Notes: a model not told the origin generated them from the letters alone. 24,000 nucleotides of DNA from Pontiella sp. (GCF_041583075.1 NZ_JBFHGN010000007.1); one strand, 5' to 3'; shown: positions 8,368 to 22,034, counted from the first letter of the stretch. Program-made: numbers and translations.

Positions 8368-8598
8368 TTAGGGGAGTTTGCCGCGCTGGGGGCTGATTCC
8401 GCGCCGGGGCTTGATGCCGAGCTTGTCCATGCGGTAGCGCAGGATGCGGCGGGTGGTGCCGAGATAGTCGGCGGCGCGGGTCTGGATGCCGTTGCATTTT
8501 TCCAGGGCCTCGAGGATCAGGTTGCGCTCGAAGTTGCCGACGGCTTCTTCGAGGTTGGGGAGTTGCGCGGAGTCGGGCCGGCCGTCGGGATTGCTCAT
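8368..8598 (-). CDS. stand-alone Fis-type (HTH_8) DNA-binding protein, 76 aa
   Basis: These are the last 76 codons of the 733-aa track ORF. The protein reads MSNPDGRPDSAQLPNLEEAVGNFERNLILEALEKCNGIQTRAADYLGTTRRILRYRMDKLGIKPRR, which matches the C-terminal HTH of NtrC/Fis proteins. Its own SD is GGAGG with a 7-nt spacer. ATG 8598-8596 overlaps the kinase stop as ATGA. Confidence 0.75.
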   Translation of the reverse strand: MSNPDGRPDSAQLPNLEEAVGNFERNLILEALEKCNGIQTRAADYLGTTRRILRYRMDKLGIKPRRGISPQRGKLP

Positions 8599-10586
8599 TC
8601 GGATTCCTCCAGCGCCGGCAGAACGATGGAGACGGTGGTGCCGCCGGAGCTGGTCTCGATATCCATCTGGCCGTTGTGGTCGACCACCGCGCGTTTGGCG
8701 ATGGGGAGTCCAAGCCCGAACCCGAGGGCCTTGGTGGTGATGAACGGCGAGAAAACCTTGTCGCGTACGGAGTCGTCGATCCCGCTTCCGTTGTCGGTGA
8801 CCATGATGAAGACGTTCCCGGAACCCTGTTCGGGCATGCGGCCCTTGGCGGTGACGTTGATGCGCGAGCCGGGCTTGTTGGCCAGGTTTTCGGCGGCGTT
8901 CTTGAGCAGGTGGTAGACGCATTCCTCGAGCGAGCCGGCGTCGCCGTTGATCTGCAACGCGGAGTCGTCGGCCGATAGATGGATCTTGAGGTTGTCGTGG
9001 TCGAGTTCGGACTGGATGCGGGTGACGGCGTGTTCGATGGGTTTGCGGATGTCGAGCGGTTGCAGATTGGGTTTGGGCGGGTTGGCGAATTCGTTGATCT
9101 TGTCGATGATCTGGTTGAGGCGGTCGACTTCGCTGGTGACCTGGTCGCCGAATTCGGTGCGGAAGTCCGCATCCTCGTAGCGCTTGGGCAGGAGCTGGGC
9201 AAAGGTTTTGATGGCGACGAGCGGGTTGCGGATTTCGTGGCTCATGCTGGATGCCAGTTCGTTCCAGAAGGTGGCGCGCTCGACCTGCTCCTCCTTTTCC
9301 TTGAGCAGCTTGACCCCGGTCACGTCGCGCAGCATCGTCATGGCGCCGACGCAGGTTCCGCCGTCGGAGAGGCAGCGGGTTTCTGCGGCGAGGGTGAGCT
9401 TGGTGCGGCTGTCGGTCCATTCGAGGAGATCGCGGGCGGCCATCTGTTTGACGGAGCGGCGCAACGTGTCGGCGATGCGGCTGCCGAGAACCTCGGCCTT
9501 TTGTCCGATGATCTCTTCCTCGGTCGGCTGGAGGATTTCCCGGGCCGTGCTGTTGAACCAGCGAATGATCGCGTTTTCGTCGCACGCCACGATGCCGAAC
9601 GGGATGGAGTGCAGCACCGTTTCGGCGAGGGCCTTCTGCAGGGCGGTCGCTTCGTACTGCAGCGCTTTTTCCAACGTGGTGGAAATATGGTCGGCGAGTC
9701 CGGTGAGGTCCTCGAGGTCGGTGAGGTCGAACGGAATTCCGGTGGAGCGCTGGCCAACGAAGATCCAGCCTTTGATGCAACCGGAGGCATAGAGCGGGAT
9801 GATGATCTCGGCCCCGAGCGAGTCGAGCATATGCTTGAGCATGGCCCGTTCCTGGGGATCGAAAACGTTTTCGAGCGTCTTGCGCGAAATCAAGTGGGTA
9901 TTCATTTCCAGCCAGCGGACAAAGGGGTTGTCGGGGCGGATGACCAGTTTTTCCGTGGCGGCGAGGCAGCGGGTGCCCGCCTGGTAGGCGTAGTTGTCGG
10001 TTGCTTCGGATTTGATGAAAATGCCCGCGCGCGAAACCCGGGCCGTGGCGACGAGGCCCTCGACGACGCTTTCGAAAAGCATGTCCACGTTGTCGAAATT
10101 GCGCTGCGCCTTGGAAAAGTTCTGCAGCGGAGCGGAAAACAGCGCGCGCGGCTGGGGGCGTTGTTCGGCTCTGCGGGCATTCAGGGTGGCGAGCTCTTCC
10201 TGCAGGATCTTGTTCTTTTGGCGGAGCGACAGGCATTCGATCGCCTGCTTGAGCAGGGCCTGGAATGCGCGGCGGTCGGGTTCCAGCGAGGTCGTCGCGA
10301 ACGGTTCGAGCCATTCGGCGGCAAGCATCGGGTCGGAACGGTCGGCGCCGAGCACAATGACGATGGTCGAGGGCTTTTCCTTGCGGATCGACGCGAGGAC
10401 GTCGAGGCAGTTGGCGGCCCGCAAGTCGGCGATAAGCAGCGTGTCGCCGAACTGGGCGATCCACTGCTCCAACTCGGTCTGTTCGTCGATCGGTTGCAGC
10501 GCCACGATGGAAGAGGCGATGCGGACGATGCGCCCGGAGAGGTTCTCGTCGCGGGTGTATAGGATGCATGACGGAAGGGTCTTCAT
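8595..10586 (-). CDS. cytoplasmic sensor histidine kinase: receiver-like domain, GAF, PAS, HisKA, HATPase_c
   Basis: 663 aa with no TM segment. The N-terminal ~120 aa have a receiver-like pattern (LLIADLRA) but lack the usual T/S and K. The H-box is SMSHEIRNPLVAIKTFAQLLPKRY, the N-box HLLKNAAEN, G1 DNGSGI and G2 GFGLGL. The start ATG overlaps the upstream kinase stop as ATGA. Confidence 0.88.
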   Translation of the reverse strand: MKTLPSCILYTRDENLSGRIVRIASSIVALQPIDEQTELEQWIAQFGDTLLIADLRAANCLDVLASIRKEKPSTIVIVLGADRSDPMLAAEWLEPFATTSLEPDRRAFQALLKQAIECLSLRQKNKILQEELATLNARRAEQRPQPRALFSAPLQNFSKAQRNFDNVDMLFESVVEGLVATARVSRAGIFIKSEATDNYAYQAGTRCLAATEKLVIRPDNPFVRWLEMNTHLISRKTLENVFDPQERAMLKHMLDSLGAEIIIPLYASGCIKGWIFVGQRSTGIPFDLTDLEDLTGLADHISTTLEKALQYEATALQKALAETVLHSIPFGIVACDENAIIRWFNSTAREILQPTEEEIIGQKAEVLGSRIADTLRRSVKQMAARDLLEWTDSRTKLTLAAETRCLSDGGTCVGAMTMLRDVTGVKLLKEKEEQVERATFWNELASSMSHEIRNPLVAIKTFAQLLPKRYEDADFRTEFGDQVTSEVDRLNQIIDKINEFANPPKPNLQPLDIRKPIEHAVTRIQSELDHDNLKIHLSADDSALQINGDAGSLEECVYHLLKNAAENLANKPGSRINVTAKGRMPEQGSGNVFIMVTDNGSGIDDSVRDKVFSPFITTKALGFGLGLPIAKRAVVDHNGQMDIETSSGGTTVSIVLPALEESE

Positions 10587-13090
10587 TTGGCGATGCCCTC
10601 TTCTAGAACCGGGATGTAGACATAGAACGTGGTGCCGCGACCGGGTTCGCTTTCCACCTCGATCACGCCATGGTGCTCGCTGATAATGCCGTGTGCAACG
10701 GATAGCCCCATACCGGTTCCTTCGCTTTTGCTGGTGAAGAACGGATCGAAGATCTTTTGGAGCTTATCGCGTTCGATGCCCTTGCCCGTATCGGTGATTT
10801 GCAGGCGGATGCACTTCTTCGTCGTCGCCCGTTCCCGGGTGTCGGGACTGGCGAAGCGGTAGTTGCAGTTGATGGTGCCGATGGTGATGTTGCCGCCCTC
10901 GCCGATCGCTTCGATGGCATTCAGCTTGAGGTTGATCAGGGCTTGCGACAGCAACTTGGCGTCACCGAAGATTTCGTCGTTGGAAGCGTTGTATTTTGTC
11001 GTGAGGTCGATGTGGTTCAAGGCGCGCTGTTCGTGGGTGAGTTTGAGCGTCTGGGCAATGGTGTCCTGCAGTTTCATGGGAATGAGGTGCGGTTTGGCCG
11101 GTTTCGAGAAGCTGAGCAATTCGTTGACGATGCCGTCGATGCGCGAAACCTCATGGGCGACCAAACTCGAAAAATCGTGCCGGAAGTCCTCGTCGTTGTA
11201 GCGCTTCGGCAGTAGCTGGGAGAAGGTTTTGATCGTGACGAGCGGGTTCTTGATTTCGTGGGCCATGCCCGCCGCCAAGGTGCCGACGCTCGAAAGCTGG
11301 TCCGTTCTGCGAACCTGTTCTTCAAGGCCTTTCAATTCGGTGATGTCGGTGAAGACCAGCAGCGCGCCCATCGGCTTGCCGTCGTGCCCTAGCAAAAAGG
11401 CCGAGCCCATGCGGATGTTCGCGCTCTCTTCCTCCGTGTCTGGGTTATACAGCGTTGCGTCCATGTTGCGAACGCCCGTCTTGGTTTCGAGCGTGGTTTC
11501 GAGCGCCATTTGGATGGCTCGCGGCAGGATCCCGATCGGTTTTCCGATCGCCGCATCGTCGGGGATGCCGGTGATGCGCTGCGCCTCGTGGTTGAACAGG
11601 GTAATGGTCCGGTCGGGGCTGGCCACGATCACTCCGCTCACCAGCTGGTCGAGCATGATTTCGTTGCGGATCTTGCTGTCCTGCATCTCCGTATAAAGCT
11701 GCGCATTCTCCAGTGCCACCGCAAACTGGTTGCACAGGATTTGGAGTCCATCTTGCTCGGACTTGTCATAAATCCTTCCATTCGCTCTGGAGCTGAGCAG
11801 GACTACGGACTGGATATCCGATTTTCGAAAGACTCCGATAGCGATGCTTGCATCCAGCTCTGCAAATTGCTGCCTTACTTGCTGTAAGGCTTCAGTCGGC
11901 CTTAGGCGGGCAATGATTTCCGCACAGACCGGTTCGTGCGTTTTGTGAATCATGGAAACCAGTTCGCTGTTTACTGAAACTTGTTTTTCAATGGAATCGT
12001 CTGTTGAAAACGCTGTTTCGAAAAAAAAGCCGTTAAGTGTTAAAATACAAACGTGTCTTGGTGAAAATTCATCAAGCAAAAACTCGGAAAACTGGGAAAG
12101 CAGGGCTTTGTATGTGGTTACCGCTTGAAAGATCTCCCCTGATGATTTTATGACAGCTGATATGTCGGTTGATTGGAGTACAATAAGTTTATCGGCGGCT
12201 CGCTGTAGTTTTTTTCGCGCTGGTGCCATTGAAAAAACTACAACAAGAGTGCAGACGATTTGAAGGGATACAGAGCTTTGAAAGCCCAGACCCTTAAAGA
12301 CTAGCGTCAAGCTATTCCAACTTATGAGATAAACGATCGTCATGTAGCACGCCAGTAAAGCGTATGCCATGATTTTTCGGAGGATGATGGCTACGGCTAG
12401 GATCTTGTGAACAGAGATTCCGTAAGCAACGATTGAAGTCAGCGTAAGAACGCTTGAGGCATGTGCAATTGGTACCGGGACAAAGCTGTCAAGAAGGGCC
12501 GCAAGAACTGTTCCGCATAGTCCTACAACAAGGCCTGCGATACAGGCAAAGCCAAGAAATTCAAGTTCAAGCCTTTGGTTTCCGTGCAATATTTTACGAT
12601 CACGATTGAGCGCATGGGCTAAAACGGCGAGTGCGCTTAGAAAGTAAAGGTTATATAGAGGATAGAATGGTCCGAATTTTGGGGTGGCAATGCTCATGCC
12701 GGTTTCGGCAACTTCTTTGTTTGCGGAGATTAAGAAGAGGTGATTAAAGCATAACGCTAGCATGATTAAGTTGAAAAGAATGTGAATCTTGCACTTTTTA
12801 ATGATTTCGATCCACGGCGCAGCTGGGTATCTTATTGAAAGACGAAGAAAATGAAATGTAGTGGGAATGAAGGCCGCAATGGCAAACGCTGCTTGTATTC
12901 CATTTTTTGTTAGAGCATCCGTCCTTGAGTTGGCAATGAAGACATTCGAGGCAAGCCATAAGGCCATGCAGATGGATGCTGTAAGGAATGCTTGATTTGT
13001 TTTCCGATAGTTGTTGTTTGCATATACGGCTATGCCTACTCCCAAAGAGATCAAGGAAGCTATTGATGGGAAAATGGTGATGATGTCCAT
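10583..13090 (-). CDS. membrane sensor histidine kinase: ~9 TM helices, GAF, PAS, HisKA, HATPase_c
   Basis: 835 aa. The first ~290 aa contain about nine hydrophobic helices and no sizeable periplasmic loop. A GAF-like region and a PAS domain follow. The H-box is GMAHEIKNPLVTIKTFSQLLPKRY, G1 TDTGKGI and G2 GTGMGL. The start ATG overlaps the ketosynthase stop as TAATG. Confidence 0.9.
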   Translation of the reverse strand: MDIITIFPSIASLISLGVGIAVYANNNYRKTNQAFLTASICMALWLASNVFIANSRTDALTKNGIQAAFAIAAFIPTTFHFLRLSIRYPAAPWIEIIKKCKIHILFNLIMLALCFNHLFLISANKEVAETGMSIATPKFGPFYPLYNLYFLSALAVLAHALNRDRKILHGNQRLELEFLGFACIAGLVVGLCGTVLAALLDSFVPVPIAHASSVLTLTSIVAYGISVHKILAVAIILRKIMAYALLACYMTIVYLISWNSLTLVFKGLGFQSSVSLQIVCTLVVVFSMAPARKKLQRAADKLIVLQSTDISAVIKSSGEIFQAVTTYKALLSQFSEFLLDEFSPRHVCILTLNGFFFETAFSTDDSIEKQVSVNSELVSMIHKTHEPVCAEIIARLRPTEALQQVRQQFAELDASIAIGVFRKSDIQSVVLLSSRANGRIYDKSEQDGLQILCNQFAVALENAQLYTEMQDSKIRNEIMLDQLVSGVIVASPDRTITLFNHEAQRITGIPDDAAIGKPIGILPRAIQMALETTLETKTGVRNMDATLYNPDTEEESANIRMGSAFLLGHDGKPMGALLVFTDITELKGLEEQVRRTDQLSSVGTLAAGMAHEIKNPLVTIKTFSQLLPKRYNDEDFRHDFSSLVAHEVSRIDGIVNELLSFSKPAKPHLIPMKLQDTIAQTLKLTHEQRALNHIDLTTKYNASNDEIFGDAKLLSQALINLKLNAIEAIGEGGNITIGTINCNYRFASPDTRERATTKKCIRLQITDTGKGIERDKLQKIFDPFFTSKSEGTGMGLSVAHGIISEHHGVIEVESEPGRGTTFYVYIPVLEEGIAK

Positions 13091-14322
13091 TAATCCAGAT
13101 TCCGCAGTAGAAGAGAACTATTCACACCGCCAATTCCTCGGCTATTGACAATAGAGATTCCGAGGTCATGCTGTCGCGCGTAGAGTGGAACATAATCCAG
13201 ATCACATGCGGGGTCTGGTACTTCAAGGTTTGCGGTGGGGGGGATGGTTCCATTTGCATATGATAGGCATGTGGAGATTGTTTGTATGGCTCCTCCCGCC
13301 GCCAAGGGATTTCCCGTTACTCCTTTAATTGATGCAACGGGAATGTTGTAGGCCTGAGGTCCAAATGTAGCTTTAATCGCTTCTGTTTCCATTTGATCCA
13401 AGGCTATATCGCTAGAGCCATGGGCATTGATGTATGAAATATCTTTAGGCATGAAGCCTGCGTTCAGAAGGGCTCCCTCCATGCTGTTTTTGAAACCATA
13501 ATCTTTCATATGGATATAGTCGCATGTCGTGCTATAGCCAACGATTTCTGCATATGGTGTGGCACCTCTTGCCAAGGCGCCATCCATAGACTCGATTACA
13601 ACAACCCCCGCTCCTTCCCCTAAAAATCCACCGGTTCTGAGAAGATCAAAAGGGCGGCTTACTTTTCTGGGGTCGTCCGATGTTTTCGAGAGTAATCCGG
13701 CGTAGCCCAGTCCGGTCACCACCGAAGGTATCACTACGGCATCGGTACCTCCGGCGACCGCAATTTCGGTCTCTCCCCGTTGAACGGCCGAAAACGCGGA
13801 TGCAATAGCATCAAGTCCCCCTGTGCAACTATTTGAAAGGGCTCCGATTCTGGTTGGAACGTCAAGCATTTTTGAAATCACGCTTGGGCCCTTAATGTGA
13901 AGGCAATAGGAAACCGTCGTCAATCCCTTGTCGATTCCTTTGCTTTCCAGTCGGCGATTATGGATTTCAACCAGATCAAGTCCGCCGAGAGTCGTGCCAA
14001 TGGTTACGAGGATCGGGGCAGCCGAGGCTAGTTCCTTTCTGTTAAGTTTCGCATCTTTGATTGCCATTTGGGCGGCGGTAGCAAGTAACTGTGTTCCTCG
14101 GTTTTCTCGTTTTGGTCGTAATTTCTTGTCTAAATAGTCGGTTGGCGTAAATCCCTTAACCTCACCAGCCAATTTCCACGGAATGTCGGACGCATCGAAT
14201 AGGGTGATGGGGCCGATGCCGGACTCGCCGGCGAGGAGGGAATTCCAGAAGGCTTCTTTGCCTATGCCATTGGCCGCAAGCACTCCCAGCCCGGTTATAA
14301 CTACTCTGTTTTTGCCGATCAC
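13090..14322 (-). CDS. beta-ketoacyl-ACP synthase, KAS I/II (FabF/FabB) fold, atypical triad
   Basis: Full-length similarity to FabF: NRVVITGLG, active-site SNSCTGG, GEGAG, NAHGSS, IKGVTGNPLAAGG and GIGGVNSSLLL. I prefer the GTG start at 14322-14320, with GGGGAG 9 nt upstream. That gives 410 aa and an N-terminus MIGKNRVVITGLG like canonical FabF. Alternative starts are ATG 14364 and the track's TTG 14415. Confidence 0.85.
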   Translation of the reverse strand: MIGKNRVVITGLGVLAANGIGKEAFWNSLLAGESGIGPITLFDASDIPWKLAGEVKGFTPTDYLDKKLRPKRENRGTQLLATAAQMAIKDAKLNRKELASAAPILVTIGTTLGGLDLVEIHNRRLESKGIDKGLTTVSYCLHIKGPSVISKMLDVPTRIGALSNSCTGGLDAIASAFSAVQRGETEIAVAGGTDAVVIPSVVTGLGYAGLLSKTSDDPRKVSRPFDLLRTGGFLGEGAGVVVIESMDGALARGATPYAEIVGYSTTCDYIHMKDYGFKNSMEGALLNAGFMPKDISYINAHGSSDIALDQMETEAIKATFGPQAYNIPVASIKGVTGNPLAAGGAIQTISTCLSYANGTIPPTANLEVPDPACDLDYVPLYARQHDLGISIVNSRGIGGVNSSLLLRNLD

Positions 14323-14385
14323 GCGCCTGAACTCCCCGTTGGAATCGGTGACACTTTGCAACATCCGGTCGCTGTGCCACATCCC

Positions 14386-14401
14386 TGTACAATTTTGTAC
14401 A
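14386..14401. promoter_or_regulatory. perfect 7+7 inverted repeat, candidate operator upstream of the ketosynthase operon
   Basis: TGTACAA-TT-TTGTACA, a 16-bp palindrome 64 nt upstream of the preferred GTG start, within the AT-rich divergent control region. Confidence 0.35.
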
Positions 14402-14465
14402 CGATAGAATATCAATATGTTGTATATATCAAGAATTATTACACAACCTATGGGCGAAATTCTTG

Positions 14466-14494
14466 CTGACAGCCGGCATGCCCATTGCTATAAC
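14466..14494 (+). promoter_or_regulatory. candidate sigma70-type promoter for the FadL-type operon
   Basis: CTGACA (14466-14471, in the context TTGCTGACA), 17 nt, then TATAAC (14489-14494), about 43 nt upstream of ATG 14537. Confidence 0.45.
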
Positions 14495-14536
14495 TTCACA
14501 GGTTGAATATAAACCAGCAATACAGGGGGTAAGTCC

Positions 14537-15727
14537 ATGAGGAATAGTTGCAAATACTTAGTTGCAATGGTTTTGCTATCTTCCGGTGCGTCAAGGGTCG
14601 GGGCGGATGGTTACAGGAATCCGCCGCCAACCGCAGAGGGCTTGGCGAAGGGGAGCGCAAACGCGGCCTTTGTGGACGATGCGTCCGCCACATTCTACAA
14701 TCCGGCCAATCTAGGGATGCAGACGGAAAAGTCGCTGGTGGTGGCCGGGACGTTTGCCCGTTCCGAAACCACATACTCGCCATTGCCCGGCGTTGAGCTT
14801 AAATCGGACGATCCGTTGCAGGTGCTTCCCAATATTTTCTATTCGCAACCTGTTGGGTTGGAAGGCTTGGTTGTGGGGCTGGGGCTCTCGACTCCGTATG
14901 GGCAAAACGTTTCATGGGATGCCGCGAAGCTGGTAAGTCCAGCCACCGGGGTTGTCGAAGCGGTTCCTTATGAGGCGGAAGTGGTCGTGCTGAATATCAA
15001 CCCGACGGCGTCCGCCAAGTTGCGGGAAAATCTTTATCTGGGTATCGGCGCGGATATTTTCTATTCGGACTTCACGCTGAAAGCCCTCTTTCCGTCGGGC
15101 GATCCAACTGCGCCGTTCGATGTCGAGGGTAGCGGCGACGGTTGGGGCATCGGCGCAAACGTTGGCCTGACTTGGCTGCCCGCCGAAGGCCACCGCGTTG
15201 CGCTGACCTACCGCAGCCGCGTCGATGTGACCTATAAAGGCGATTTCAAGGCAGACTACCCGAATACGGGCGATTTCCAGACCACGCTGAAATATCCGAA
15301 CACCTTCGGAGTCGGTTATGGCGTTCAGGTTAGGGACAACGTTCAGGTCGAGGCTTTGGTCGAGTGGTTGGAATGGTCGGTCAACGACACGCAAACGATC
15401 GATGCGGGCGGCGCCGAAATAGCCCTGGACAACAGTTGGGACGATACCTTTACCCTGAACTGCGGGATCGACTGGGCGGCAACCGATGCCCTGGCCGTTC
15501 GCGCGGGTTACACCTATCTGCCGTCGCCCATCCCGGACGGCAGTGCTTCGCCGTTGCTCCCGGATCTCGATCGCCACGTGCTCGGCATTGGTTTCGGATG
15601 CGCGATGGGCATGCACCAGCTCGATCTCGCATATTCCTACAGCATCTACGATGATCGCGAAACGACAACCGGAACTTATGAGGTTGATTCCAATCTCGTT
15701 TCCATGACATATTCCTTGTCTTTTTAG
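14537..15727 (+). CDS. outer-membrane transport protein of the FadL/TodX (OMPP1) family
   Basis: 396 aa. The signal peptide is MRNSCKYLVAMVLLSSGASRVGA. The N-terminal hatch region carries the FYNPANL motif. Alternating beta-strand patterns follow, and the C-terminus is YSLSF. The RBS AGGGGG lies 7 nt upstream. Confidence 0.8.
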   Translation: MRNSCKYLVAMVLLSSGASRVGADGYRNPPPTAEGLAKGSANAAFVDDASATFYNPANLGMQTEKSLVVAGTFARSETTYSPLPGVELKSDDPLQVLPNIFYSQPVGLEGLVVGLGLSTPYGQNVSWDAAKLVSPATGVVEAVPYEAEVVVLNINPTASAKLRENLYLGIGADIFYSDFTLKALFPSGDPTAPFDVEGSGDGWGIGANVGLTWLPAEGHRVALTYRSRVDVTYKGDFKADYPNTGDFQTTLKYPNTFGVGYGVQVRDNVQVEALVEWLEWSVNDTQTIDAGGAEIALDNSWDDTFTLNCGIDWAATDALAVRAGYTYLPSPIPDGSASPLLPDLDRHVLGIGFGCAMGMHQLDLAYSYSIYDDRETTTGTYEVDSNLVSMTYSLSF

Positions 15728-15736
15728 GGACATGAA

Positions 15737-16927
15737 ATGATTGCGGAAACAACGGATAAGTTGGGAACGGTATTGGTCATCGACGACGAGCGCGGACCGC
15801 GCGAAAGTCTGAGGATGGTTCTCAAATATGATTACGACATGTTCTTGGCCGAGCGCGTCGATGCCGGAATCCAACTGCTGCGCGAGCAGGAGCCCGACCT
15901 AGTCATCATGGATATCCGCATGCCCGAGAAAAGCGGGATCGAGGGGCTGCAGGAAATCCGCGAGATCAATCCGAACGTCTCCATCGTCATGCTTACGGGC
16001 TACGGCGATCTGGAAACCGCCCAGCAGGCCATCCGCTTCGGAGCCAACGACTATCTCCAAAAACCGTTCGATATCGACGAAATTCAAGCCGTCGTGAAAA
16101 AGTATGTCGAGCGGTCCAAGTTGCATTCCCGCAAGAGGCAGGCGCAGGAAGAGCTGAACAAGATGACCCAGTCGCTCAGCCGGGAAGTCGGCAAGACCAA
16201 CAAGCTGACTTCTCTGGGTGCGGCCTCGTCGGAGCTGGTACGCGACCTGCGCAACCCGCTCACCATCATCCGCGGCTACCTCGACCTGCTGAACTACGAA
16301 TTGAAGGAAAAGCAGGAATCGACCTCCGAGGAAATGAGCGAATACCTCGACCAAATCGAAACCAACGTGGAGCGTTGCGCGGAGTTGGTTGAATCGTGGC
16401 GTTCGCTCGGTCGCTTCGATTTTTCGCAGTTGCAACGCCTAAACCTGCCTAAGCTCGTGAGCGATTGCTTCCGTGATGCCGCCGCCCATTCCGAAATTTC
16501 CTTCTCTGTCCAGGTCGAAGGGCCGGAAGACCAATATGAGATGCTCGGCGAGCGCCTGCAGGTCAAGCGTGCCTTTCAGAACCTGATCGACAACGCTGTC
16601 GAAGCTCTTGATCAACAATGCTCGCCCGTCATCGTCGTTGTTTTTTCGATGACCAACAACGACATCGACGTCAAGGTCAAGGACAACGGCTGTGGGGTGG
16701 ACCCGCAAAAGATACGCTGGATTTTCGAGCCGTTCGACACGGCCGCCACCATTGAAAAGGGGGCGGGGTTGGGGCTGTTCATCACCAAGAAGGTGATCGA
16801 GGAGCACCGGGGCTCGTTGCAGTTCGAGAGCCGGGTCGGCGAAGGTTCGGTCGTCACCGTCAAGGTTCCGCAGGCCCATACCGCCTTGGGCTATTTTTCC
16901 AGCCCCGAATCTTTGGTCCAGGCCTAG
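15737..16927 (+). CDS. response-regulator receiver fused to a HisKA-like/HATPase_c kinase core that lacks the phospho-acceptor His
   Basis: The receiver is canonical: VLVIDDE, LVIMDIRMP, MLTG and LQKPF. The DHp-like helix reads SSELVRDLRNPLTIIRGYLDLL, with R169 in the place of the H-box His. The ATP-binding boxes are intact: NLIDNAVEAL, DNGCGV, FEPF and GAGLGL. Confidence 0.85.
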   Translation: MIAETTDKLGTVLVIDDERGPRESLRMVLKYDYDMFLAERVDAGIQLLREQEPDLVIMDIRMPEKSGIEGLQEIREINPNVSIVMLTGYGDLETAQQAIRFGANDYLQKPFDIDEIQAVVKKYVERSKLHSRKRQAQEELNKMTQSLSREVGKTNKLTSLGAASSELVRDLRNPLTIIRGYLDLLNYELKEKQESTSEEMSEYLDQIETNVERCAELVESWRSLGRFDFSQLQRLNLPKLVSDCFRDAAAHSEISFSVQVEGPEDQYEMLGERLQVKRAFQNLIDNAVEALDQQCSPVIVVVFSMTNNDIDVKVKDNGCGVDPQKIRWIFEPFDTAATIEKGAGLGLFITKKVIEEHRGSLQFESRVGEGSVVTVKVPQAHTALGYFSSPESLVQA

Positions 16928-16933
16928 TTCGCC

Positions 16934-18544
16934 ATGTCAAATGTCCTCTCCGTCGCCATCGCCGCTTGGGAAACCGAACTCGGCGCGGATGCAGTAATTG
17001 CCGATGCAGAGGGGCTTCGTCTCTACACCCCAAGCGTATGCGCTTCCGAGCGGCAGGTTGTTGCCGTGCTCAAACCCGCTTCTGCCGAAGAGGTGCGTCG
17101 CATCGTTGCCGTGGCCAACGACCATAAGGTTCCACTCTATCCGATCAGTACGGGAAAGCAGTGGGGTATGGGTTCGCGGCTTCCTGTGCGCGACGGAGCG
17201 GCGATCGTCGACCTCTCCCGCATGAACCGGATCATCGAGATCGATGTTCAATATCACTATGCCGTTGTTGAGCCCGGGGTTACGCAAAGGCAGTTGCTGG
17301 ATCATATTGCTGAACACAACCTGCCACTGATGCTCAACGTTACGGGTTCCGCATCCGAGACCAGTTTGATTGGTAATGCGTTGGATCGGGGGGTGGGCTA
17401 TTTTGATTCGCGCGTCGAGGGCATGTCCAGCATGCAGGTTGTACTCGGCAACGGCGAAACCATCCGAACCGGGTTCGGGCATTATGAAAATGCAAAAACG
17501 AAGAATCTCCATCCCCCCGGCATCGGACCGTCGCTGGACGGCCTTTTTCCGCAAGGGAATTTTGGAATCGTAACGTCCGCCTGTATCGATCTGATGCCGA
17601 AACCCGAAGCGCACATGGCGGCCATTATTAAAATCGACGCCGAGGAGCGGTTGCCTTTGCTCATCGATGCGCTTGTGCAATTGCGTTCACGCGGGGTGTT
17701 TCTAACGGTGGCGCATGTCGGCAACCGCGAGCGGTCCTATGCCACCCTGGCTCCGCTTCTCTATGGACAGCTGGTTGAAGGGGGCGATCCGGAAGGCGCC
17801 GCGACCCGGGAAAAAGCCATCCGGATGCTTGAGGATGGCGGCTTCGGTCCGTGGAGCGCAGCCGTCGGTGTACTCGGCACCAAGGCCCAGCTCAAGCTGG
17901 CCAAGAAGGAGATTCGGAAATCCTTAAAGCATTTTGCCAAGACCATGTTTCTTGACGATGCCTTGGTCGAGAAAGCCATGGCTCTCGGAGAGGCCCTTTC
18001 CTTCATACCTTTTGTTCGAAAGCAATGGATGATGCTCCGGGCCGCTAGGACGGTGTATGGCTTTACCCGTGGCGAGACAACCGATGAAACCCTTAAGTCC
18101 GTTTACTGGTCGGCGGGGGATTATGACCATCTTGACGCGCCCAATCCCGATGCAAGCAATAGCGGGGTGTTGTTTTGCGTGCCGATTGTTCCTGCATGCG
18201 GAAAAGACGTCTTCGAGGTGGCGGATTGCACTCGCGAAACGTTTTCCCGTCACGGCTTCGAGGCTGCCATAACCTTCAATCTTATGAATACCAAGGCCAT
18301 GGAAGGTGTGGTTAGCCTCTCGTTCGACCGTCGCAGCGGCGATCGGGTTGCCGCCGCCAAAGCCTGTATCCAGGAGATGGAAACGCGCTACTTGGAGATG
18401 GGCTATCCTCCTTACCGGGTCGGCATCAACTCAATGCCAACGGTGGTCAACGAAGACGATCCATTCTGGCGAACGGTTCGCGACCTCAAAAAGGTGCTGG
18501 ACCCCAACCATATCATTTCCCCAGGACGCTTCAACTTGGTCTGA
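16934..18544 (+). CDS. FAD-binding oxidoreductase, PCMH-type (VAO / p-cresol methylhydroxylase-like family)
   Basis: 536 aa. The N-terminal FAD_binding_4 pattern is VVAVLKPASAEEVRRIVAVANDHKVPLYPISTGKQWG...IVDLSRMNRIIEID...AVVEPGVT. The C-terminal motif LDPNHIISPGRF is typical of FAD-linked oxidases. It starts 6 nt after the upstream gene. Confidence 0.75.
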   Translation: MSNVLSVAIAAWETELGADAVIADAEGLRLYTPSVCASERQVVAVLKPASAEEVRRIVAVANDHKVPLYPISTGKQWGMGSRLPVRDGAAIVDLSRMNRIIEIDVQYHYAVVEPGVTQRQLLDHIAEHNLPLMLNVTGSASETSLIGNALDRGVGYFDSRVEGMSSMQVVLGNGETIRTGFGHYENAKTKNLHPPGIGPSLDGLFPQGNFGIVTSACIDLMPKPEAHMAAIIKIDAEERLPLLIDALVQLRSRGVFLTVAHVGNRERSYATLAPLLYGQLVEGGDPEGAATREKAIRMLEDGGFGPWSAAVGVLGTKAQLKLAKKEIRKSLKHFAKTMFLDDALVEKAMALGEALSFIPFVRKQWMMLRAARTVYGFTRGETTDETLKSVYWSAGDYDHLDAPNPDASNSGVLFCVPIVPACGKDVFEVADCTRETFSRHGFEAAITFNLMNTKAMEGVVSLSFDRRSGDRVAAAKACIQEMETRYLEMGYPPYRVGINSMPTVVNEDDPFWRTVRDLKKVLDPNHIISPGRFNLV

Positions 18545-19787: not shown

Positions 19788-19820
19788 GTCAAGAGTATGC
19801 CAGTACGGGGGGGTGGAAGC

Positions 19821-20411
19821 ATGGCCGGCAGGGATGCCATATGTATATTGATCGCCTATTTGCTGGGCGGCGTATGTACGGGTTACTACGTGGTTCGGTT
19901 GAAGTCGGGGCTCGATATCCGGGAACACGGAAGCGGCGGCGTGGGGGCGCGCAACGTGGGCCGCATTCTTGGAAAGCCGGGGTTTGTCGTCACCCTGCTC
20001 GGCGACTCGCTCAAGGGGGTGGTTGCCATACTCCTTGCCCGCAAGTTCGAGATCAGCGAAGCCGCCGTAGCCCTGGTGGTGGTCGCCGTCATCGCCGGGC
20101 ATATCTGGCCGCTACCGTTGCAGTTGCGCGGCGGTCGCGGAATCGCCACCGCCATTGGCGCCTATCTGGCATACGATCCCTACCTGGCGTTGCTGTTGCT
20201 CGGTTTGACCGTGGTGCTAATGGCGTTTCGCCGCGGATTCATCCTGAGTGGTTTGGCGGCGTTTCTCGTGCTGCCCGCCGCGGCCTTCGCGCTCAATCGG
20301 CCCGGTCATACGGTTGCGGCGCTGGCGGGGGCGTCGGTCATTATTCTTTTCGCTCATCGCGAACGCATCCGCCAGGCGTTTACCGAAGTATTACCCCAAA
20401 AGGAGGCCTAG
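19821..20411 (+). CDS. plsY: glycerol-3-phosphate acyltransferase PlsY (acyl-phosphate dependent)
   Basis: A polytopic membrane protein with the PlsY motifs AYLLGG, HGSGGVGARNVGR, DSLKG and GHIWPL....RGGRGIATAIG. I chose the start at ATG 19821, the second Met of the track ORF, to match the usual PlsY N-terminus. Confidence 0.88.
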   Translation: MAGRDAICILIAYLLGGVCTGYYVVRLKSGLDIREHGSGGVGARNVGRILGKPGFVVTLLGDSLKGVVAILLARKFEISEAAVALVVVAVIAGHIWPLPLQLRGGRGIATAIGAYLAYDPYLALLLLGLTVVLMAFRRGFILSGLAAFLVLPAAAFALNRPGHTVAALAGASVIILFAHRERIRQAFTEVLPQKEA

Positions 20412-22034
20412 ATGGGTTTGCTCGATGGATTCATTTTTAAAATCGCGGATCAGCCGTGGGAGATCGATGCGGTCAATGCGCTCAACTACAAAACCTTTGT
20501 CGAAGAGATTCCCCAGCACGCGCCGAACCCCGAAGGGAAGCTGGCCGACAAGTTCCATGAAGAGAACACCTACATTGTCTGCGTCCACGAGGCGAAAAAG
20601 GTGCTCGCCGGGATGATTGCTTTTCGCGACAAACGGCCCTTTTCGCTGGATGCCAAGTTGCCGGAGCTCGATTCGTATTTGCCGCCGGACCGCTCGCTGT
20701 GCGAGATCCGCCTGCTGGCCGTTGAAGAGGAATACCGCTACACCCGCATCTCGCAAGGGCTGATTGCAACACTGGTGCAGCATGCCATCGACTGCGGCCA
20801 CGACCTTGCCGTCATCTCGGGAACCGTGCGCCAGATCAAGCTCTACAAATTCCTGGGCTTCGTTCCCTTCGGCCCGTTGGTCGGCGCCGAGGGCGCGCAG
20901 TACCAACCGATGTATCTCACGCTCGAGGCCTACAAAGATCTGAAAGGGCGCTCCCGCGCCTTCGCCAAGGACGAGCCCGAGCTGGCCAACGACGACACCT
21001 TGCTCTTCAACTTCCTGCCCGGCCCCGTCGATTTTTCCCGGCAGGTGCAAGATGTCTACGGCGAAAAGCCCTGTTCCCATCGGGGGAATGCCTTCGCCAA
21101 AGACTTCCAGAAAGCCCGCGAACTGCTGTGCGGGCTCACCCAGGCGCGGCAGGTCGAAATTCTCATGGGTACCGGGACGCTGGCCAACGACGCCGTCGCC
21201 GCGCAGTTATCGTTGCTCTGCCAGACCGGCTTGATCCTCGTCAGCGGCGAATTCGGCCGCCGGCTCGTCAGGAATGCCAACGGAGCAAAGCTCTTTTTCC
21301 ACACGCTGGAAGTTCCCGAAGGGCAGGCCTTCGCCCGGGCCCAGATCGAGCAGATCCTGAACAAGCATTCCGACATTGAGTGGATTTGGGGGGTGCACTG
21401 CGAAACTTCGACGGGCGTACTCAACGATCTGGAAATGTACAAGGAGGTTTGCACCGCTCGCGGCATCAAGCTTTGTCTGGACTGCATCAGCTCGATCGGC
21501 ACCGTCCCCGTCGACCTCTCCGGGGTCTATCTCGCCTCCGGCACCAGCGGCAAAGGCTTGGCTTCCATTGCCGGGCTTTCGATGGTCTTCCACAACCACG
21601 ACTTCGAATCCGCGCCCGACGATATTCCGTGCGTGCTTGATCTGGGGCTTTATCAAGAGGAGGGCGGCATCCCGTTCACCGTGCAGTCCAACCTCGTCTA
21701 CGCCCTGTTGGCCGCCCTCGAGTCGCACGATTGGAGCAAACGGTTTTCCGATGTGCGTAAATGGTCGAAGTCGATCCGCCGCAAGCTCGCCGAAATCGAC
21801 GTGCCGATCCTGGCGGCCGACGCCTGCGCCATGCCCGCCGTCATCACCATCGCCCTGCCGGAAATCCATTCGTCGGAAACCATCGGCGACAAGCTCAAGG
21901 AGCACGGCGTGCTGATTAGCTACCGCAGTCACTACCTGCTCGAACGCAACTGGATCCAGGCCTGCATGATGGGGGCCGAGCACCGGCCCTCCGACAAATT
22001 CGTCCGCCTGCTCAAGAAGGAGTTGAAAAGGTAA
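20412..22034 (+). CDS. fusion protein: N-terminal GNAT-like N-acyltransferase domain plus class-V (AGXT/PhnW-like) PLP aminotransferase domain
   Basis: The ATG comes immediately after the plsY stop (TAGATG). Residues 1-175 follow a GNAT / N-acyl amino acid synthase-like pattern (CEIRLLAVEEEYR, LYKFLGFVPFG). Residues ~195-540 carry class-V aminotransferase motifs: FLPGP, GTGTLANDA, LCLDCISSIGTVPVD and SGTSGKGLASIAGLSMV, which includes a candidate PLP lysine. Confidence 0.7.
   Translation: MGLLDGFIFKIADQPWEIDAVNALNYKTFVEEIPQHAPNPEGKLADKFHEENTYIVCVHEAKKVLAGMIAFRDKRPFSLDAKLPELDSYLPPDRSLCEIRLLAVEEEYRYTRISQGLIATLVQHAIDCGHDLAVISGTVRQIKLYKFLGFVPFGPLVGAEGAQYQPMYLTLEAYKDLKGRSRAFAKDEPELANDDTLLFNFLPGPVDFSRQVQDVYGEKPCSHRGNAFAKDFQKARELLCGLTQARQVEILMGTGTLANDAVAAQLSLLCQTGLILVSGEFGRRLVRNANGAKLFFHTLEVPEGQAFARAQIEQILNKHSDIEWIWGVHCETSTGVLNDLEMYKEVCTARGIKLCLDCISSIGTVPVDLSGVYLASGTSGKGLASIAGLSMVFHNHDFESAPDDIPCVLDLGLYQEEGGIPFTVQSNLVYALLAALESHDWSKRFSDVRKWSKSIRRKLAEIDVPILAADACAMPAVITIALPEIHSSETIGDKLKEHGVLISYRSHYLLERNWIQACMMGAEHRPSDKFVRLLKKELKR

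Follow-up and report, generated by a model that had tools for sequence, protein, structure and literature searches.

A 24,000-nt stretch of DNA from a Pontiella sp. (the window throughout; Kiritimatiellales, Pontiella lineage; part of a 3.6-Mb metagenome-assembled genome, or MAG, that is 87% complete) holds between positions 8368 and 18544 a two-component signaling locus that probably represents an AtoS/AtoC-like, sigma-54-linked system whose activator has been reduced to a selected DNA-binding stub with a palindrome of its own, the stub now serving as a local regulator. The stub is a stand-alone HTH_8 protein of 76 amino acids (8368-8598, minus strand), encoded directly behind a cytoplasmic histidine kinase in an operon that also comprises a membrane histidine kinase and a ketosynthase; a FadL-type channel, a receiver-kinase, and a flavoprotein are transcribed divergently. 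Comparison with relatives indicates that the ancestral locus possessed a dedicated REC-AAA+-HTH_8 regulator of the NtrC type directly after the cytoplasmic kinase, and that this regulator was trimmed in steps until here only the 76-residue DNA-binding domain, translationally coupled to the kinase and evidently under strong purifying selection, was left. The implications are considerable, as one locus in living lineages presents the full activator, loss of its ATPase, decay or loss of its receiver, a free DNA-binding domain under selection, and complete loss. Cultured Pontiella desulfatans, P. sulfatireligans, P. agarivorans, and strain S94 all carry the stub, which is annotated in each of them, in P. 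desulfatans as PDESU_05396, so the proposal is testable. Literature searches found no paper describing the locus.

The case for stepwise reduction rests on what is encoded directly downstream of the cytoplasmic kinase in each locus (handles beginning with L are our own). Loci L051, L052, L054, and L089 (Ratteibacteria) encode a full regulator of about 453 residues with Response_reg, Sigma54_activat, AAA_lid, and HTH_8 domains and AtoC as its best match; at L051, the only locus for which the coordinates of both reading frames were read, this regulator overlaps the kinase stop by 4 nt. A Response_reg plus HTH_8 protein of 190-204 residues occupies the same place in L034, L035, L038, L041, L045, L055, L071, and L143 (sister genus of the same family), while L146 encodes a 170-residue HTH_8 protein with a decayed REC, lacking a Pfam score and with Gly in place of the acceptor Asp, and L058, a recent response-regulator pseudogene, retains a REC fragment alone. 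HTH_8 alone, at 68-76 residues, is found in 12 species including the Pontiella sp. of the window, and in some 20 loci there is no regulator and the kinase runs directly into the next gene. No relocated copy of the regulator was found in the genome of the window or in five near-complete relatives without it, where matches were only at the level of paralogues (32-43%). Given that the full form lies in basal lineages and in the outgroup phylum of the kinase tree and that the stub is nested inside the family, loss and not gain is the parsimonious direction. Further, the REC-HTH_8 domain junctions differ between the two families, which suggests that the AAA+ ATPase was lost twice. The receivers of these REC-HTH_8 intermediates find their best NCBIfam matches in the N-termini of AtoC and NtrC; membership of the intermediates in the ActR/PrrA/RegA group was considered and rejected, with no such model among the 25 best NCBIfam matches shown. 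Loss of rpoN was likewise rejected as the route by which the sister family lost its AAA+ domain, as searches recovered rpoN from every one of that family's 14 genomes, and from 37 of the 41 genomes covered overall. As a separate observation, the full-length activators of L051, L052, L054, and L089 carry GAFTHA, GAFTSA, or GAFTNA and not the canonical GAFTGA loop; among the activators of the window genome GAFTGA occurs in six of seven (one partial), the seventh having GAYTDA.

Measured against an activator of the NtrC/AtoC type, the 76-residue open reading frame retains the helix-turn-helix (HTH) domain alone: Pfam assigns HTH_8 and nothing else (49.5 bits, cut-off 22), with neither a receiver nor a Sigma54_activat/GAFTGA AAA+ domain. 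Its HTH finds its best NCBIfam match in the C-terminus of AtoC, where it aligns to residues 408-458, and the best PDB match of the stub is 2m8g, a 70-residue chain of an HTH-type transcriptional regulator. Identity to the HTH_8 domains of the regulators found in the same place in relatives is 52-69%; within its own genome the best paralogue reaches 39%. The N-terminal PDGRP of the stub corresponds to the linker AEPDGRP of the REC-HTH_8 forms, such that the reading frame begins at the linker preceding the HTH, and no Kiritimatiellia form, from full activator to stub, departs from the recognition helix GTTRRILRYR, which has diverged (ITRRKLSYKM) in the Ratteibacteria outgroup L089. In all 12 stub copies the start overlaps the kinase stop and is preceded at 7-10 nt by a GGAGG-type Shine-Dalgarno sequence. 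Over the same 12 species the core of 48 codons, spanning the dimerisation helix and the HTH, has a ratio of nonsynonymous to synonymous substitution (dN/dS) of 0.09 with dS near 1.3, the tails having ratios of 0.7-0.8. The stub thus appears, on these substitution patterns, to be still functional and kept by selection. An apparent tblastn extension of the stub frame into the 3' end of the kinase gene was dismissed as an Arg-rich artefact.

The second line of evidence is a perfect palindrome, TGTACAATTTTGTACA (14386-14401; TGTACAA-N2-TTGTACA), located a short distance upstream of where the ketosynthase gene starts. No other match at two or fewer mismatches exists in the window or in the whole genome, for which chance alone would give about 0.003 perfect matches and 3.5 at two or fewer mismatches. 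When presence is defined as a copy with no more than two mismatches, the palindrome accompanies HTH_8 in any form at 21 of 22 loci, including that of Ratteibacteria, and occurs at 1 of 17 loci without HTH_8, the single case being the recent pseudogene L058. The same relationship is seen inside the stub clade, where L133 has lost the stub and has a site with 5 mismatches, and where L131, with the stub, has 1 mismatch versus 6 in L139, without it. All three well-supported, phylogenetically independent contrasts of stub and palindrome agree, as do about six on the full tree. In L036 the palindrome stays beside the ketosynthase gene despite lying 2 kb from the fadL promoter; in L036 and L043 alike, an additional 2 kb or so separates fadL from the ketosynthase gene. 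Across the loci compared, the palindrome seems to survive where the HTH domain survives and to decay where the domain is gone, and it is likely the DNA site of the HTH_8 domain, serving as a putative operator or enhancer site.

In the family alignment, the control region runs from the palindrome through an IHF-like site TATCAATATGTTG and a conserved block to TGGCAC/T-N5-TTGCT, which about 45 nt separate from the fadL ATG. The IHF-like site and block (14410-14447, plus strand) contain an imperfect inverted repeat, GTTGTAT-N15-ACACAAC, that is conserved with or without the stub, and they form a putative functional element; a second copy of the block, which might have pointed to an activator acting in trans, was sought and none was found, the block being unique in the genome. 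The sigma-54 type -24/-12 element, CGGCATGCCCATTGCT (14474-14489, plus strand), lies 47 nt upstream of the fadL ATG and has the GG and GC of TGGCAC-N5-TTGCW at their fixed spacing, the aligned relatives reading TGGCACG-N4-TTGCT. All four loci with full activators have the element, at 9-11 of 11 positions of the consensus. It also occurs in about 19 of the 23 loci of the family, and no instance was found in those sister families whose regulator is REC-HTH_8 or absent. ATPase loss in the sister family therefore went together with promoter loss. The identical pattern scan recovers the nifH and pilus/pilin promoters of the genome. The earlier note on this DNA, made from the sequence alone, had advised a search of the genome for rpoN and for AAA+ activators encoded elsewhere, and both are there: rpoN is intact, here as in each of the four families, and there are six or seven activators, three of the REC type, two of the GAF type, one of the PAS type, and a partial one. 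None of these could be linked to the fadL promoter. Given that the Pontiella family keeps the promoter even without stub or palindrome, another activator must presumably serve it, and the locus poses the question of how a sigma-54 promoter is kept running after its dedicated activator has gone. Outside the family, five loci from MAGs labelled 'Chthoniobacterales' (L062, L065, L066, L069, and L078), which have neither FadL nor a regulator in cis, share a recurrent GGTACG-N5-TTGCT (7-8 of 11 positions) upstream of the receiver-kinase gene that may be a variant sigma-54 promoter.

In the reading that we consider probable, the stub would bind the palindrome without needing phosphorylation and would regulate its own locus, most likely by autorepression of the ketosynthase-kinase operon. 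Alone it could not activate sigma-54, and the fadL promoter would be served by an activator encoded elsewhere. The membrane and cytoplasmic kinases would share a docking surface in the dimerisation and histidine phosphotransfer (DHp) domain and so address the same receivers, which at present would be that of the receiver-kinase in its Arg form (the acceptor His replaced by Arg) and perhaps the N-terminal receiver-like part of the cytoplasmic kinase; the Arg-type receiver-kinase would act as a pseudokinase or phosphate sink. Several points weigh against this reading. The phylogenetically corrected test of stub against palindrome is underpowered, with 3 well-supported contrasts and a p of 0.25, and L054 has a full activator yet only a palindrome with 4 mismatches. 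The -24 element of the window opens with CGG rather than TGG, agreeing with the consensus at 8 of 11 positions, and the family keeps its sigma-54 promoter without any activator in cis. The trees are single-gene trees with several unresolved forks. Finally, a scan of the control region found no terminators and no sigma-70 promoter for the ketosynthase operon, and the sign of regulation is therefore a guess.

Other arrangements of the same parts must be considered. The stub might occupy the old enhancer site and block or tune sigma-54 activation of the fadL operon as a dominant-negative relic, a role consistent with its having the DNA-binding domain and the site of the ancestral activator without the ATPase, and with the position of the palindrome at enhancer distance from the promoter. 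Against it, the site in L036, conserved despite its displacement by 2 kb, fits regulation of the ketosynthase operon better; we consider an anti-activator unlikely. Closer to the view of the earlier note, a three-piece activator might be assembled in trans, with the Arg-type kinase contributing its receiver, an unlinked protein the AAA+ domain, and the stub the HTH; the stub would tether the AAA+ protein at the palindrome, some 107 nt before the start site of fadL. An enhancer-like spacing of palindrome (about 88 nt in nine stub-bearing loci), IHF-like site, and sigma-54 promoter would suit this arrangement, as would rpoN and several AAA+ activators in the genome and an Arg receiver-kinase in every stub-bearing locus. 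However, all six complete AAA+ activators carry a C-terminal HTH of their own, the promoter persists in genomes that have neither stub nor palindrome, and the 2 kb between palindrome and promoter in L036 is again difficult to accommodate. The receiver-kinase moreover coexists with the full-length activator in relatives and is therefore a separate, older gene and not the missing REC, which also leaves unsupported the idea, suggested by the earlier note, of a single regulator whose REC and HTH_8 have come to lie on different polypeptides. An assembly of three pieces is thus quite unlikely. That the reading frame is a decaying, functionless remnant within a chance neighborhood of signaling genes is disfavored and, in our estimation, highly improbable. 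Its loss from many close relatives and the almost neutral evolution of the stub tails would be expected of a remnant; the constraint on the core over 12 species at saturating dS, the conserved start codon and Shine-Dalgarno sequence, and the co-conserved palindrome would not, and synteny of the whole set across the order and into other phyla speaks against chance neighborhood. The preferred reading remains that of a local regulator acting at its own palindrome.

Profile matches to Pfam and NCBIfam models confirm the inventory first drawn up for the locus, with three kinase cores, one receiver, one 76-residue HTH, and no AAA+ domain; Sigma54_activat has zero matches on the whole contig, in keeping with the claim that the window has no sigma-54 AAA+ domain. 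The stops and starts of the minus-strand operon do overlap at all junctions, reading TAATG, ATGA, and ATGA. The divergent control region was given as 214 nt, which holds (14323-14536, 44% GC) if the ketosynthase starts at GTG 14322 and shrinks to 154-172 nt if it starts at ATG 14364 or 14382. On the plus strand, the gene at 14537-15727 encodes a member of the FadL/TodX family of outer-membrane channels, as its Toluene_X score of 148.1 bits exceeds the gathering threshold of 29.7, and a VAO/PCMH-type flavoprotein with FAD_binding_4 follows the receiver-kinase at 16934-18544. That these genes form a unit, as was proposed, is borne out by their co-occurrence in relatives, which rules out accidental adjacency. 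The FadL/receiver-kinase pair is divergent from the ketosynthase, membrane kinase, and cytoplasmic kinase genes in every Kiritimatiellales locus on a sufficiently long contig, and the same gene set recurs further out, reaching sister families (about 40% identity), deeper Kiritimatiellia, several MAGs that bear the labels Chthoniobacterales and Opitutales, and one MAG from Ratteibacteria. An orthologue of the cytoplasmic kinase is found in 40 of 54 family genomes, with 64-83% identity within the family and about 40% across the order, and synteny extends to the flavoprotein throughout the family as well as in L051 and L052, two deeper lineages. In most Pontiella loci the flavoprotein is followed by PlsY and a 540-residue protein whose C-terminal half is PhnW/AepZ-like aminotransferase (19797-22034 in the window), another lipid-related neighbor; in strain S94 (L129) the FadL match is split into two pieces and the intergenic region is 822 nt. 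One MAG has two copies of the locus (L139 on G014:C11 and L147 on G014:C185), one with the stub and one without (His form), reflecting either a real duplication or two strains binned together.

Likewise, the kinases are consistent with the ancestry proposed for the regulator. The cytoplasmic kinase (8595-10586, minus strand; PAS, HisKA, and HATPase_c by Pfam) and the membrane kinase (10583-13090, minus strand; weak HisKA_7TM, then PAS, HisKA, and HATPase_c) both have the H-boxes reported for them, SHEIRNPLVAIKTFAQLLPKRY and AHEIKNPLVTIKTFSQLLPKRY, and the suggestion that these are NtrB/AtoS-like kinases with an NtrC-type partner is vindicated by relatives that encode an NtrC/AtoC-type activator directly after the cytoplasmic kinase. 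AtoS (NF008468) is the best NCBIfam match of all three kinases at 303.6, 209.5, and 129.7 bits, all below the cut-off of 646. Taken together, comparison across lineages identifies the locus as a true unit of evident NtrB/AtoS-NtrC ancestry with a sigma-54 link. Residues 1-292 of the membrane kinase form a multi-transmembrane input of 7-9 hydrophobic segments, within a variable region that extends to about residue 450. In the cytoplasmic kinase, residues 6-120 adopt a receiver fold, followed by a GAF-like domain (mean predicted local confidence, pLDDT, 84.8 in the model); the best PDB fold match of the N-terminal 310 residues is the REC-GAF dual-sensor kinase 6oaq, and the receiver of HupR aligns to the receiver fold at a TM score of 0.81. 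Asp13 and Asp54 are invariant over 13 orthologues (17-75% identity), the usual Thr and Lys being missing. The count of one receiver consequently stands at the level of Pfam, and a second receiver fold, invisible to Pfam, has to be added to it.

The receiver-kinase (15737-16927, plus strand; Response_reg, HisKA, and HATPase_c) is the best-conserved protein of the locus, its identity being 76-91% among members of the genus and 68% for the sister genus. As the earlier note held, the sole canonical receiver sits on a kinase without the acceptor His: Pfam assigns Response_reg, the receiver keeps D16, D17, D59, T87, and K109, and the H-box reads VRDLRNPL, with Arg encoded by CGC at 16241-16243. The HATPase_c domain scores 80 bits and has its N, G1, F, and G2 boxes, with N282, N286, D316, G318, G320, G342, G344, and G346 invariant and the ATP-lid motifs intact. 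The missing His is no fixed design feature, as might have been supposed, given that the Arg is confined to the Pontiella family and toggles with His. Outside the family the acceptor site is His in all orthologues; inside it the codon has switched between CAY and CGN three times or more, whether judged on the kinase tree or on that of the receiver-kinase itself, setting L037, L042, L043, L047, and L139 apart from the rest of the family, and the surrounding helix, LGAASSELV-x-DLRNPLTIIRGY, is nearly invariant. All stub-bearing loci are of the Arg form, the His form being confined to loci from which the HTH gene has gone altogether. Four different codons specify the Arg, which is therefore old and maintained. 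Why the acceptor residue of so conserved a receiver-kinase should flip between His and Arg among close relatives is a further question posed by the locus. The receiver of this protein is the closest paralogue of the receiver of the lost regulator (42% identity), with a near-identical beta1-alpha1 segment, which in two-component systems is the kinase-docking surface, and the DHp helices of the membrane and cytoplasmic kinases are nearly identical. Both His-bearing sensors would therefore be expected to feed the same receivers, and the Arg-type receiver-kinase is presumably a pseudokinase or phosphate sink and not a phosphodonor.

Less certain is the part played by the ketosynthase (13090 to about 14364, minus strand; start at GTG 14322, ATG 14364, or ATG 14382). 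Pfam assigns both the N and C domains of ketoacyl-synt, and the protein is FabF-like without being FabF, having a Cys-His-Asn triad in place of Cys-His-His and a TIGR03150 score of 343.5 where at least 493.75 is required. A Cys-His-His triad was found in none of 49 ketosynthase orthologues, the active-site Cys being invariant. Over these 49 loci (13309-13311 in the window) the triads are C-H-N in 26, C-N-H in 8, C-H-S in 4, and C-W-x in the Chthoniobacterales-labelled MAGs. Within the family the identities of the cytoplasmic kinase, the catalytic half of the membrane kinase, and the receiver-kinase track together (rho 0.63-0.76). Neither the ketosynthase (40-76% identity) nor the stretch of the membrane kinase up to residue 450 (residues 1-450; 23-65%) follows the kinase cores (rho about 0); the two are coupled to each other (Mantel rho 0.36, p 0.002), and this divergent region coincides with a low-GC stretch at about 11740-14580. 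L040 and L132, close sisters by their kinases, have ketosynthases of different types, a pattern suggestive of exchange of the cassette. The coupling of ketosynthase and sensor could be due to nothing more than physical linkage; the more interesting reading would be a synthase-receptor or sensor-partner pair. We offer only as a speculation, and a doubtful one, that the ketosynthase and the multi-transmembrane input may constitute an exchangeable cassette of signal and receptor, which would make or capture a lipid-derived signal passing through FadL, its variants diversifying or being swapped between Pontiella species without regard to the conserved kinase cores, much as in the hypervariable agr region of staphylococci. 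If true, this would be a system of lipid-based cell-cell or envelope signaling in the Planctomycetes-Verrucomicrobia-Chlamydiae (PVC) group, undescribed so far.

More broadly, the locus invites comparison with several known systems. AtoS-AtoC of Escherichia coli is a sigma-54-dependent two-component system for genes of short-chain fatty acid use. AtoS is the best NCBIfam match of the three kinase cores and AtoC that of both the ancestral-type regulator and the stub HTH, and the two systems share a sigma-54 promoter, an upstream palindrome, and lipid-related target genes. The Pontiella locus differs in scoring far below the equivalog cut-offs (the kinases against 646, the regulator with 442 against 714), in having three kinases, one of them a receiver-kinase, and in the absence of REC and AAA+ from the regulator of this genome. 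DivL of Caulobacter, which is kinase-like and has Tyr where the phospho-acceptor His would stand, is like the receiver-kinase a highly conserved HisKA-HATPase protein in which the acceptor His is missing and the ATP-lid motifs are intact, a combination that implies a non-kinase signaling role in both; the receiver-kinase differs in its Arg, its N-terminal canonical receiver, and its toggling between His and Arg among close relatives. The cytoplasmic kinase has the receiver fold, coiled coil, and GAF domain of the REC-GAF dual-sensor kinase (6oap/6oaq), but is only 10-11% identical to it, lacks the conserved Thr and Lys of the receiver, and gives no evidence of bilin binding. The intermediates of the sister lineages have the two-domain REC-HTH_8 architecture of RegA, PrrA, and ActR without AAA+, but their AtoC/NtrC-like receivers mark them as independent derivatives and not members of that group. 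Finally, an origin of Fis from the NtrC C-terminal domain has been proposed (Morett and Bork 1998, FEBS Lett 433:108; cited as reference 63 of PMC11407668), and the parallel is a small stand-alone HTH_8 protein arising from the DNA-binding domain of an enhancer-binding protein. The stub differs from Fis in its 76 residues without a Fis-like N-terminal arm, in its coupling to a kinase, and in having a single predicted cognate site in the genome, as would befit a local regulator and not a nucleoid protein. It differs above all in that the intermediates are all still extant at one locus, such that the route long proposed for Fis from NtrC can be seen here with its intermediates in place.

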